Program-made: the position numbers and the translations under genes
Notes under the pieces: model-generated
What the model was told of the DNA's origin: nothing
The model's input: the letters and a program-made list of their open reading frames with translations, nothing else
The model's database searches: none
Part shown: positions 11,213-13,107 of the stretch, in pieces
How the letters are laid out: each line of letters starts with the position of its first letter
Position numbering within the stretch: the first letter of the stretch is position 1
From: Escherichia coli
GTDB taxonomy: Bacteria; Pseudomonadota; Gammaproteobacteria; Enterobacterales; Enterobacteriaceae
DNA: 64,000 nt
Strand: one strand, 5' to 3'
Assembly (NCBI RefSeq): GCF_003334305.1
Contig: NZ_QOWS01000015.1

Positions 11213-11401
11213 ATGGGCAAAGCAACGTATACCGTGACCGTCACCAATAACAGCAATGGCGTTTCTGTCGATTATGAAACAGAGACGCCGATGACTTTGC
11301 TGGTGCCAGAAGTGGCGGCTGAAGTGATAAAAGATTTGGTGAATACCGTGCGTTCTTATCCGGTGCGCCGTAAAACCCCGTCCTTCAGGGCGGGGATATA
11401 A
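11213..11401 (+). CDS. yoaG: YoaG (DUF1869) with C-terminus replaced by IS-derived codons (chimeric, insertion-disrupted)
   Basis: First 49 codons (to ...VRSY at 11357-11359) match recalled YoaG; the last 13 codons (PVRRKTPSFRAGI) lie inside the IS left end. Confidence 0.8.
   Translation: MGKATYTVTVTNNSNGVSVDYETETPMTLLVPEVAAEVIKDLVNTVRSYPVRRKTPSFRAGI
11376..11395. repeat. IS left-end subterminal imperfect hairpin
   Basis: CCCCGTCC-TTCA-GGGCGGGG, 16 nt inside the inferred left junction. Confidence 0.6.
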
Positions 11402-11416
11402 GGCGCGGTTTTCCAC

Positions 11417-11848
11417 CTAACCAGGTGTTTGCTGTTGTTCAATGTATTGGCGGATGACGGATATTGGCGCACCTCCGCAGCTACTGGCAAAATAGCCAGG
11501 ACTCCACAAAACGCCTTTGTAGTAATACCTGACTGCAATATCTGGTCGATCTCGTCGCAGTAACCTACCCGATACGCCTTTGAGGCTGTTTACCAGACTG
11601 GATATCGCCAGTTTGGGAGGATAGTTAATTAACAAATGGACGTGATCTGGTTCGCCATCCATTTCAACAAGTTCAGCTTCAAAATCAGCACATACATTTG
11701 AAAAGTAAGTGCGTAGTTTTTCTGTCGCGTCATGGTCAAAAATCTGGAGTCGGTATCTGGTGACAAAGACCAGGTGAACATGCATCAGGAAAACACAATG
11801 CCTTCCACGCCGGATATCGGTTTCTTTTTTCACAGACCAAAGTATCAT
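11417..11848 (-). CDS. tnpA: IS200/IS605-family Y1 (HUH) transposase TnpA
   Basis: 143 aa; HUH motif in PDHVHLLINYP; catalytic Tyr near C-terminus (VIRQYIEQQ); size typical of IS200 TnpA. Confidence 0.92.
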   Translation of the reverse strand: MILWSVKKETDIRRGRHCVFLMHVHLVFVTRYRLQIFDHDATEKLRTYFSNVCADFEAELVEMDGEPDHVHLLINYPPKLAISSLVNSLKGVSGRLLRRDRPDIAVRYYYKGVLWSPGYFASSCGGAPISVIRQYIEQQQTPG

Positions 11849-11855
11849 TTGACCT

Positions 11856-13064
11856 GTGAAACGATTACAGGCATTTAAATTCCAGTTAAGACCAGGTGGT
11901 CAACAGGAGTGTGAAATGAGGCGCTTCGCAGGCGCATGTCGTTTCGTTTTCAATCGTGCTCTGGCACGTCAGAATGAGAATCATGAGGCCGGTAATAAAT
12001 ACATCCCTTACGGGAAAATGGCTTCCTGGCTGGTTGAGTGGAAAAACGCCACTGAAACGCAATGGCTTAAAGATTCGCCCTCACAGCCATTGCAACAGTC
12101 ACTGAAAGACCTTGAGCGGGCTTACAAAAACTTCTTCCGGAAGCGGGCTGCTTTTCCCCGATTCAAAAAGCGGGGACAGAATGATGCATTCCGCTACCCG
12201 CAGGGCGTAAAGCTCGATCAGGAAAACAGCCGTATTTTTCTGCCGAAACTGGGCTGGATGCGCTACCGGAATAGCCGTCAGGTCACGGGTGTTGTGAAAA
12301 ATGTCACGGTCAGCCAGTCCTGCGGTAAGTGGTACATCAGTATTCAGACAGAAAGTGAAGTATCCACTCCGGTTCACCCTTCAGCATCAATGGTCGGGCT
12401 GGATGCTGGCGTGGCTAAACTCGCCACGCTGTCAGATGGCACAGTCTTTGAGCCTGTAAACAGTTTTCAGAAAAACCAGAAGACGCTGGCGAGACTTCAG
12501 CGACAGTTAAGCCGCAAGGTCAAATTCAGCAACAACTGGCAGAAGCAGAAACGCAAAATACAGCGACTGCATTCCCGTATCGCAAATATCCGCAGGGACT
12601 ACCTTCACAAAGTCACAACGACCGTCAGCAAAAACCACGCAATGATAGTCATTGAGGATTTGAAGGTCAGCAACATGTCAAAGTCAGCAGCGGGTACGGT
12701 CAGCCAGCCGGGGCGCAATGTCCGGGCAAAATCAGGTTTAAACCGTTCGATACTGGATCAGGGCTGGTATGAAATGCGCCGCCAGCTTGAGTACAAGCAG
12801 CTCTGGAGTGGCGGTCAGGTGCTTGCTGCTCCGCCAGCGTACACAAGCCAGCGTTGCGCGTGCTGTGGTCATACAGCGAAAGAAAATCGCCTGTCACAAA
12901 GTCAATTCAGATGCCAGGTATGTGGATATACAGCGAACGCCGATGTAAACGGCGCTCGTAACATTTTAGCGGCGGGGCACGCCGTTCTTGCCTGTGGAGA
13001 GATGGTGCAGTCAGGCCGCTCGTTGAAGCAGGAACCCACCGAAATGATTCAGGCGACAGCCTGA
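11856..13064 (+). CDS. tnpB: IS605-family TnpB (OrfB), RuvC-like RNA-guided endonuclease, GTG start
   Basis: 402 aa; RuvC-I GLDAGV, Ruv[11 protein letters not shown], Ruv[15 protein letters not shown]; CxxC...CxxC zinc finger (CACCGH...CQVCGY). Confidence 0.92.
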
Positions 13065-13077
13065 ACGTAGCAGGGAT

Positions 13078-13097
13078 CCTCGTCATTCAGGGCGTGG
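13078..13097. repeat. IS right-end subterminal imperfect hairpin
   Basis: CCTCGTCA-TTCA-GGGCGTGG, similar to the left-end hairpin; 10 nt from the inferred right end (TCAA). Confidence 0.55.
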
Positions 13098-13107
13098 AGG
13101 ATGTCAA

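Follow-up and report, generated by a model that had tools for sequence, protein, structure and literature searches.

The window, a 64,000-nucleotide stretch of Escherichia coli DNA, carries an insertion sequence of the IS200/IS605 family that splits the 3' end of yoaG. The features assigned to this locus are as follows, with coordinates given in the numbering of the window.

11213..11401, + strand: interrupted yoaG, from the list of open reading frames; 49 native codons and 13 codons encoded by the insertion sequence (PVRRKTPSFRAGI), 62 amino acids, stop at 11401.
11356..11359, + strand: 5'-TTAT, host DNA at the end of yoaG codons 48-49, directly 5' of the left end; by analogy, the target and transposon-adjacent motif (TAM).
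11360..13107, + strand: element assigned as a complete copy of IS609, 1,748 bp, IS200/IS605 family, with divergent tnpA and tnpB; basis, match to a K-12 feature and a clean alignment gap.
11360..11416, + strand: left end (LE); putative guide AAAA at 11372-11375, hairpin CCCCGTCC-TTCA-GGGCGGGG at 11376-11395, with 16 nt between it and the predicted point of cleavage.
11417..11848, - strand: tnpA, Y1 HUH transposase, 143 amino acids, uninterrupted (NF033573); HVH at residues 69-71 and a catalytic-type Tyr135 in VIRQYIEQQ.
11856..13064, + strand: tnpB, insQ homologue, RNA-guided endonuclease, 402 amino acids, intact (NF040570 and Pfam).
12950..13107, + strand: putative omegaRNA (reRNA) scaffold, consisting of the tnpB 3' end and the right end; left limit approximate; by analogy with ISDra2.
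13074..13107, + strand: core of the right end (RE), from a 12-copy alignment; putative guide GGAT at 13074-13077, hairpin CCTCGTCA-TTCA-GGGCGTGG at 13078-13097, then AGGATG, and the predicted cleavage motif TCAA at 13104-13107.
13108..13127, + strand: predicted guide of the omegaRNA and predicted target of TnpB, GACACGGAAAACGAACATGA, displaced yoaG sequence from codon 50; by analogy with ISDra2.
13108..13143, + strand: orphaned yoaG 3' end, encoding DTENEHDVCGW and a stop (GAC ACG GAA AAC GAA CAT GAT GTT TGT GGT TGG TAA).

The yoaG gene starts at 11213 and matches K-12 YoaG over 49 codons, up to position 11359 (...CGT TCT TAT). Joining 11213-11359 to 13108-13143 restores a 183-nt open reading frame whose 60-aa product does not differ from YoaG of TG1, a K-12 derivative; the two genes differ by two nucleotides, both silent. 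A sequence-only reading of this DNA had given the 49-codon match, the break at 11360 and the reappearance of DTENEHDVCGW and the stop codon from 13108, all of which proved exact to the base. Its description of the missing codons as being in frame at 13108 holds in that the break falls on a codon boundary, but 1,748 is not divisible by 3, and thus the two yoaG pieces lie in different absolute frames within the window. The yeaR-yoaG operon is inducible by nitrate and NO. The insertion swaps the last 11 residues of YoaG, a small DUF1869 protein, for 13 residues encoded by the insertion sequence, and in RefSeq genomes with this insertion the chimeric product is annotated as a 62-aa 'DUF1869 domain-containing protein' (WP_000513743.1).

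When the window was compared with MG1655 by local megablast, the alignment was broken exactly between 11359 and 13108, corresponding to adjacent K-12 positions 1879439 and 1879438, leaving a gap of 1,748 bp with zero bases duplicated and zero lost. The insertion shows the pattern of the IS200/IS605 family: it lies 3' of a specific tetranucleotide, without target-site duplication, and its removal reconstitutes the empty site exactly. An alignment to the K-12 yeaR-yoaG-yeaQ region had been proposed as a check and gave the expected clean gap at yoaG with no duplicated flank, which bears out the proposal of a 1748-bp IS200/IS605-family element inserted 3' of ...TCTTAT without duplication. The element itself is not foreign to K-12, contrary to what had been supposed. 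MG1655 carries, at 1503161-1504908 in the ydcL/ydcO interval, a 1,748-bp feature named "insertion sequence:IS609" that comprises the yncK pseudo-tnpA and insQ, and 11360-13107 matches it ungapped with 98.2% identity and identical ends; what K-12 lacks is the copy at yoaG. The ISfinder criterion for isoforms is at least about 95% nucleotide identity. The name IS609 is thus given on the basis of the same ends and this identity, with the K-12 feature as reference. In the matching genomes, RefSeq has these same two genes, tnpA and TnpB, annotated, and in one of them tnpA is named 'IS609 family transposase'. IS609 and its yoaG insertion are therefore already known, the element being catalogued and the site annotated in RefSeq. 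No second copy of the element was found within the 64-kb window.

Among 5,426 complete E. coli genomes, the yoaG site was found to be occupied, with both flanks present, in 1,096 and empty in 4,318; where empty, the site aligned without interruption across 800 bp, with identity reaching 99.9%. One genome that carries the copy, that of strain A7 (NZ_CP028767.1), is 100% identical across 3,748 bp. Some form of IS609 sequence occurs in 5,015 of the 5,426 genomes, the median number of places being 2. The earlier view of the element as strain-specific mobile DNA is not compatible with these counts. The reverse polarity, in which yoaG with the element would be the original state and a deletion removed the segment from K-12-like strains, can be given only a vanishingly small probability. 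All that speaks for it is that any indel can formally be read in either direction, and it was rejected because the junction falls on adjacent bases and empty sites code for a full-length, conserved DUF1869 protein of 60 aa. The occurrence of the same 1,748-bp unit, bounded by identical ends, at six further unrelated loci, and the excess of empty over occupied sites, also count against it. Scarless excision would yield an empty site as well, but that belongs to the insertion-sequence model.

Copies at the yoaG site from different strains differ pairwise at 14-45 positions, with a maximum of about 2.5% (45/1,748), and some have decayed through stops or frameshifts of their own. A site common to many genomes, together with divergence and decay among its copies, indicates an old, lineage-wide insertion. 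Thus, 11360-13107 is, with high confidence, a full-length copy of the catalogued E. coli IS609, derived from a single old insertion 3' of the yoaG TTAT and vertically inherited by about one-fifth of E. coli.

The two genes predicted from the open reading frames, a 143-aa Y1 HUH transposase and a 402-aa TnpB, were both recovered by protein models. TnpA scored 142.8 bits against NF033573 transpos_IS200 (cutoff 55), the match covering model positions 2-126 of 126, and its small size, HUH motif and catalytic-type tyrosine point to a Y1 HUH transposase of the IS200/IS605 type. TnpB scored 384.8 bits against NF040570 guided_TnpB (cutoff 100) and contains the Pfam domains HTH_OrfB_IS605 (residues 1-48), OrfB_IS605 (162-277) and Cas12f1-like_TNB (304-370). 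The RuvC residues D183, E267 and D363 and a zinc finger, C334-x2-C337 and C353-x2-C356, are present, and tnpB is accordingly predicted to be the accessory gene of the family, for a RuvC-type RNA-guided nuclease. The protein differs from K-12 InsQ at 9 amino acids.

The bases next to the element are constant. TTAT lies directly 5' of it at all seven independent loci (yoaG, ydcO, yedK, DUF3251/yajI, TetR, yfeD and yidH), each of which reads TTAT followed by CCGGTGCGCC...GGATGTCAA, and the right flanks are unrelated. This constancy of TTAT and of the ...GGATGTCAA end defines the target rule of IS609. The longer motif TTTAT precedes the element at five of the seven sites. By analogy with IS608, ISDra2 and ISGst2, TTAT would serve both as the target of TnpA and as the TAM of TnpB. 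Terminal inverted repeats are absent, since inverting one end (CCGGTGCGCC...) does not give the other (...GGAGGATGTCAA); instead, subterminal hairpins lie at both ends on one strand. Overall, the full anatomy of the family is present: a Y1 HUH transposase, a divergent TnpB, subterminal hairpins, a TTAT target, a TCAA end and no duplication.

The LE hairpin folds as DNA with -14.7 kcal/mol (z = -2.2) and is conserved in other IS609 copies in the alignment. The guide AAAA would pair with TTAT in keeping with the IS608 rule, the change at the fourth position being a compensating one, and the RE guide GGAT is predicted to pair with TCAA at two canonical positions and one wobble, giving T:G at one position where GAAT of IS608 gives T:A. 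At the RE, the foot of the hairpin lies 10 nt from the end of the element, and in most copies the stem of the hairpin comprises 8 bp, one of them a G:T wobble, the majority sequence being CCACGTCC...GGGCGTGG. In the window copy, positions 13080 and 13085 are T and A instead of the A and C of most copies, which introduces two mismatches into this 8-bp stem; the DNA fold of its RE was not significant against shuffles (z = -0.87). Because of the mismatches and this fold, the yoaG copy might be excision-defective, and the variant may lower the copy's own mobility. The same variant allows an alternative 6-bp stem, ATCCTC/GAGGAT.

The altered stem raises the possibility that the yoaG copy is an immobile fossil, a relic fixed in place by its RE mismatches, whose intact reading frames reflect only chance or use in trans and whose persistence owes nothing to homing by TnpB. 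The mismatched stem with its non-significant fold fits this explanation, as do the sharing of the site by 1,096 genomes and the decay of sister yoaG copies that have nevertheless been retained. However, the CCTCGTCA variant also occurs at the yfeD locus of O157:H7, and a variant present at a second locus implies that elements with this RE moved or were converted. Moreover, the alternative stem remains available in the variant, tnpA of the yoaG copy has no internal stop or frameshift, unlike that of most copies, and hairpins of the IS608 type are imperfect by nature (PMC3201880). Immobility is on balance doubtful, though it deserves serious consideration.

Taking the element as an ordinary member of its family, its movement can be outlined from the biochemistry of IS608, ISDra2 and ISGst2. 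TnpA dimers would bind both subterminal hairpins of the + strand while it is single-stranded at a replication fork, and the places of cleavage would be fixed by base pairing of the 4-nt guides 5' of the hairpins, AAAA with TTAT and GGAT with TCAA. The + strand would then leave as a circle with the junction ...GGATGTCAA joined to CCGGTGCG..., while the donor would be resealed scarlessly with yoaG restored, and the circle would be pasted 3' of another TTAT. TnpB would bind an omegaRNA derived from the tnpB 3' end and the RE and running about 16-20 nt into yoaG. The complex would cut the joint left behind by the element, in which GACACGGAAAACGAAC comes after TTAT, and repair from the sister chromosome would reinstate the element. 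Such cutting and repair would help to explain its long persistence at yoaG.

The placement of the putative omegaRNA follows ISDra2, in which an RNA of ~150 nt is derived from the tnpB 3' end and RE, with its last ~16 nt coming from the DNA flanking the RE (PMC8612924). The predicted guide sequence directly follows TTAT in empty sites. At gathering thresholds, Rfam gave zero matches in the element. A permissive Rfam search gave two weak positional matches below threshold, RAGATH-18 at 12991-13034 (29.5 bits; gathering score 44.9) and HgcC at 12997-13120 (15.4 bits versus 50); an lncRNA match from the permissive search was discarded as obviously spurious. As RNA, the final 198 nt folded no better than shuffles (z = -1.5). 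As this holds for the RE DNA fold as well, no structural claim is drawn from either.

Comparison of 12 sampled IS609 copies distinguishes the two genes. An intact and properly terminated tnpA was found in only two of them, the window copy and the UTAK-14 copy, and the other 10 have a broken or unterminated gene, whereas tnpB is full-length in nine. TnpA of the window copy ends with TAG after residue 143, and CAG stands at this place in K-12 and in five of six copies at other loci. The tnpA at the yajI locus is frameshifted and uninformative on this position. Besides the intact form, the tnpA alleles include ones with a stop at 96 and ones with a stop at 62. Across 11 copies, pN/pS was 0.28 for tnpB and 0.91 for tnpA, figures obtained from non-independent pairs in a small and partly recombinant sample. 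By these ratios, tnpB is apparently under purifying selection across IS609 copies and tnpA is not. The yoaG copy is an ordinary IS609 whose sole unusual trait is that tnpA and tnpB are both intact. With both genes intact, it is a candidate autonomous copy, potentially able to supply TnpA in trans to copies with a dead tnpA.

The same asymmetry could arise if the element were partly domesticated, with tnpB, and perhaps the guide RNA, kept for a host function or a transposase-independent function and the insertion sequence persisting as a resident gene cassette. The low pN/pS and frequent full length of tnpB beside a neutral, mostly broken tnpA agree with domestication, as does the presence of IS609 sequence in 5,015 genomes, and TnpB has reportedly been domesticated into RNA-guided regulators (PMC10705468). 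On the other hand, domesticated proteins of the TldR type are said to be nuclease-dead, and the RuvC D-E-D triad of TnpB is intact here. Selfish homing predicts the same preservation of tnpB over tnpA, given one source of TnpA such as the yoaG copy, and the guide differs at every IS609 locus, which implies that there is no common target. Domestication is therefore regarded as very unlikely.

A selfish reading can be carried further: the yoaG copy would be the master autonomous IS609 of its lineages, providing TnpA in trans to tnpA-dead copies, and each tnpB would be selected because its TnpB-omegaRNA guards its own locus; excision may in addition be tuned by the RE hairpin variant with its shifted register (ATCCTC/GAGGAT). 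This extended proposal is itself quite unlikely to be right in full. If it were true, the IS609 copies of E. coli would form a natural test, on the scale of populations, of the 'homing/retention' model of TnpB. An intact tnpB reading frame does not guarantee nuclease activity, because TnpB of H. pylori IS608 showed no interference activity in the assays of Meers et al. (bioRxiv 10.1101/2023.03.14.532601). A literature search on IS609, and on InsQ together with TnpB, returned surveys and annotation mentions only, and biochemical or functional work was not found. The comparison of copies offers a natural illustration of a point that has been made experimentally, in that tnpB is conserved and tnpA is not, and a copy with intact tnpA and tnpB is usable for testing the activities of TnpA and TnpB (InsQ). 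The yoaG insertion can also serve as a lineage marker that splits complete E. coli genomes roughly 20:80. Its impact on annotation is small, as RefSeq already records this very insertion in over 1,000 genomes.

How does the yoaG copy compare with known systems? The IS609 of K-12 resembles it in length, end bases, gene order and orientation, TTAT target and TCAA end, and differs in its locus, ydcL/ydcO instead of yoaG. The K-12 tnpA has a stop at codon 96, whereas that of the yoaG copy is intact, and residue 336 of TnpB, within the first CxxC, is Y in K-12 and C in the yoaG copy. The hairpins differ in opposite directions: the LE hairpin is fully paired in the yoaG copy, with G at element position 21, and mismatched in K-12, with A there, whereas at the RE it is the K-12 hairpin that pairs throughout and the yoaG copy that carries two mismatches. 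Divergent tnpA and tnpB are also found in H. pylori IS605 and IS606.

H. pylori IS608, the structural and biochemical paradigm of the family, provides the end architecture and the guide pairing rule used here (PMC3201880). It shares with IS609 a Y1 TnpA and a TnpB, subterminal imperfect hairpins, each with a 4-nt guide (a putative one in IS609) on the 5' side of its foot, TCAA as the cleavage motif at the RE with a spacing of 10 nt to the hairpin foot, A-10 and G-9 directly 3' of the hairpin, and insertion 3' of a tetranucleotide without duplication. The two elements differ in target and LE guide (TTAT and AAAA in IS609, TTAC and AAAG in IS608), in the distance from the LE cleavage point to the hairpin foot (16 nt and 19 nt, respectively) and in the RE guide (GGAT and GAAT, respectively). 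ISDra2 of Deinococcus radiodurans and ISGst2 of Geobacillus stearothermophilus have the same TnpB domain set and catalytic residues as IS609. By analogy with both, IS609 would be expected to produce a guide RNA from the tnpB 3' end and RE, to take its guide from the flank and to use the TnpA target as the TAM. The tnpA and tnpB genes overlap in ISDra2 (PMC8612924), whereas they are divergent in IS609. The TAM of ISGst2 TnpB is TTTAT (bioRxiv 10.1101/2023.03.14.532601), the same motif that precedes IS609 at five of its seven sites.

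The segment at 11360-13107, which interrupts yoaG, is identified by its sequence as IS609. In K-12 MG1655, the stretch from 1503161 to 1504908 that separates ydcL from ydcO is annotated as a mobile element, "insertion sequence:IS609", which is exactly 1,748 bp long and contains the pseudogene yncK (tnpA) and insQ (tnpB). The window element was found to align with it ungapped at 98.2% identity, with the same first and last bases. Because length, ends and ungapped identity all agree with the K-12 feature, the element was assigned to IS609, and the alignment bears out the boundaries proposed by the sequence-only reading. 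That reading had also taken the element to be absent from K-12, which is incorrect: MG1655 is without a copy at yoaG only. No second IS609 copy was found within the 64-kb window. The features of the locus are the following.

11213-11359, plus strand: 5' part of yoaG, 49 codons as in the K-12 protein, ending CGT TCT TAT
11376-11395: left-end (LE) hairpin CCCCGTCC-TTCA-GGGCGGGG, 16 nt from the tip
11417-11848, minus strand: tnpA ORF, 143 aa (NF033573, HUH motif, C-terminal Tyr)
11856-13064, plus strand: tnpB ORF, 402 aa (NF040570, Pfam domains, RuvC residues)
13108-13143, plus strand: 3' remainder of yoaG, encoding DTENEHDVCGW and a stop

Both ORFs anticipated between the yoaG halves are thus present. 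The tnpA product is a full-length IS200-type Y1 transposase (NF033573, 142.8 bits versus a cutoff of 55), with the HUH motif at residues 69-71 and the C-terminal tyrosine at Y135. The tnpB product is the RNA-guided nuclease TnpB (NF040570, 384.8 bits), which matches HTH_OrfB_IS605, OrfB_IS605 and Cas12f1-like_TNB in Pfam and contains RuvC residues D183, E267 and D363 and two CxxC pairs. The window element shows the defining features of the IS200/IS605 family that can be tested in silico: both genes, hairpins near the ends in place of terminal inverted repeats, and insertion 3' of a fixed tetranucleotide with no target duplication.

The K-12 YoaG protein is followed up to 11359, in line with the sequence-only reading. 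Put together, 11213-11359 and 13108-13143 make up a 183-nt gene that differs from yoaG of the K-12 derivative TG1 by two silent nucleotide changes and encodes the same protein. Local alignment of the window to K-12 MG1655 1824000-1893000 breaks at 11359|13108, corresponding to the adjacent K-12 bases 1879439|1879438, with 0 bases duplicated and 0 lost; the expected clean 1,748-bp gap with no duplicated flank was therefore observed. The restored yoaG, the ends shared at seven loci and the K-12 break at adjacent bases refute a deletion on the K-12 side. The missing codons do reappear at 13108, but since 1,748 bp is no whole number of codons, they are in frame solely in the restored gene. Interrupted yoaG instead ends at 11401, after 13 codons contributed by the IS; the 62-aa chimeric product is annotated by PGAP as "DUF1869 domain-containing protein" in genomes with the same insertion.

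Among 5,426 complete E. coli genomes, 5,015 contain IS609-like sequence, the median number of places per genome being two. An empty yoaG site was identified in 4,318 genomes (query: the two flanks, 400 bp each, joined) and an occupied one in 1,096 (query: the element with 1 kb of flank at both ends, coverage of at least 80%). The insertion, previously read as strain-specific, is a lineage-level polymorphism (~20%), and is already known in that it is PGAP-annotated in >1,000 genomes. Copies at yoaG in other strains have the junctions and a right-end (RE) variant in common with the window copy, differing from it at 16-37 positions and among themselves at up to 45. Premature stops were observed in A38 (tnpA codon 62, tnpB codon 5), MLI107 (tnpA codon 96) and GN4143 (tnpA codon 96, with a 14-bp deletion in tnpB). 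Such divergence and decay are as expected of an insertion that is old and has been inherited vertically. Diverged (91-95%) or partial IS609-like tnpB segments also occur at 569 places on E. coli plasmids, indicating that IS609 relatives travel on mobile replicons too; one adjoins a "head processing protein" gene and may belong to a P1-like phage-plasmid.

The window copy could be a fixed, immobile relic, a rather unlikely case that would qualify the main model without giving the element another identity. In the RE variant, 13080 is T (A in most copies) and 13085 is A (C in most copies), which places two mismatches in the RE stem; the RE of this copy folds no better than shuffled sequence, and the variant may lower excision. 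The same variant occurs in the yfeD copy of O157:H7, and so is not peculiar to a dead copy. Among 12 sampled copies, tnpA is uninterrupted with its own stop codon in two, the window and UTAK-14 yoaG copies; in the other 10, tnpA is cut short at codon 96, 76 or 62, is frameshifted, or lacks a stop at codon 144 (yfeD copy). Full-length tnpB was found in 9/12, and pN/pS across 11 copies was 0.91 for tnpA and 0.28 for tnpB, values that give only the direction of effect because pairs are non-independent. This retention of tnpB and decay of tnpA in E. coli IS609, a by-product of mild interest, would also suit a partly domesticated tnpB cassette, an improbable reading. The window copy is among the intact ones.

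In K-12 InsQ, the first CxxC zinc-finger pair has Tyr instead of its second Cys, at residue 336 (CAYC), whereas the window and other copies keep the Cys (CACC, CTCC or CVCC); C336Y may impair the structure of TnpB in the laboratory strain. The tnpA codon-96 nonsense allele occurs at several loci (ydcO, yedK, TetR) and in some, not all, yoaG-site copies, and pairwise distances form a mosaic: 11 differences separate the UTAK-14 yoaG copy from the yedK copy, and 16 separate it from the window copy. These patterns suggest that IS609 copies have undergone gene conversion with one another, or that copies with a dead tnpA have been mobilised in trans.

Two further differences from K-12 are unrelated to IS609. 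The yeaV ORF (5940-7550, minus strand) has 224 bp at its 5' end (7423-7646) that are missing from MG1655 at 1883151, giving 536 aa versus 481 aa. A 5' deletion seems to have occurred in K-12, because the longer form, annotated as "BCCT family transporter YeaV", occurs in 2,931/5,426 genomes. At 30858-31002, 145 bp replace K-12 1852534-1861691 (~9.2 kb), the ydjE-ydjF-ydjG-ydjH-ydjI-ydjJ-ydjK-ydjL sugar-acid cluster, which the source genome is without between pncA and yeaC. No tRNA genes were found in the 64 kb, and an Rfam search of the window at gathering level returned only the sRNAs sroD (2471-2556, plus strand, downstream of fadD; 114.6 bits) and ES036/CssrF (60130-60172, minus strand; 42.9 bits).

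A putative TnpB guide RNA (omegaRNA) might lie within 12950-13107; the RNA fold z-score is -1.5. Sub-threshold Rfam matches span 12991-13120 (plus strand), over the tnpB 3' end and RE hairpin: RAGATH-18 (29.5 bits, gathering score 44.9) through a conserved CCUGUGGAG...UGAAGCAGGAA core, and the archaeal family HgcC (15.4 bits) across the RE hairpin plus GGAGGAUGUCAA. These matches suggest that features of a TnpB guide-RNA scaffold are common to both families and the right end of IS609.

The literature searched yielded no functional work on IS609 or InsQ; the anatomy of IS609 is read from sequence, and its dynamics would follow those of relatives. In IS608 and ISDra2, TnpA cuts out the top strand in circular form, closes the donor scarlessly and inserts 3' of a target motif (PMC3201880, PMC8612924, bioRxiv 10.1101/2023.03.14.532601). 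ISDra2 TnpB binds a ~150-nt RNA from the tnpB 3' end and RE, its last ~16 nt flank-derived, and cuts DNA having the TnpA target motif as its transposon-adjacent motif (TAM) (PMC8612924). Cutting of the donor joint by Geobacillus stearothermophilus TnpB leads to restoration of the element by recombination, and the TAM of its TnpB2 is TTTAT (bioRxiv 10.1101/2023.03.14.532601). The predicted target for the window copy would be TTAT followed by GACACGGAAAACGAAC..., that is, restored yoaG.

The ends were compared at seven independent loci (yoaG, ydcL/ydcO, yedK, DUF3251/yajI, a TetR-family gene, yfeD and yidH). 5'-TTAT directly precedes IS609 at all seven (TTTAT in five, CTTAT in two), and the element starts with CCGGTGCGCC and finishes with GGAGGATGTCAA throughout, the right flanks being unrelated. 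AAAA forms the four bases 5' of the LE hairpin foot; the RE of most copies has a hairpin CCACGTCC-TTCA-GGGCGTGG, followed by AGGATGTCAA, with GGAT next to the foot on the 5' side. The 4-nt guides 5' of the IS608 hairpin feet pair with the cleavage tetranucleotides; the IS608 RE is cleaved at TCAA, 10 nt beyond the foot on the 3' side, with A-10/G-9 in base triples (PMC3201880). The end layout of IS609 is that of IS608. The putative LE guide/target pair of IS609 is AAAA/TTAT, that of IS608 AAAG/TTAC; both members change together at position four, which, in our reading, is as the IS608 pairing rule would predict.
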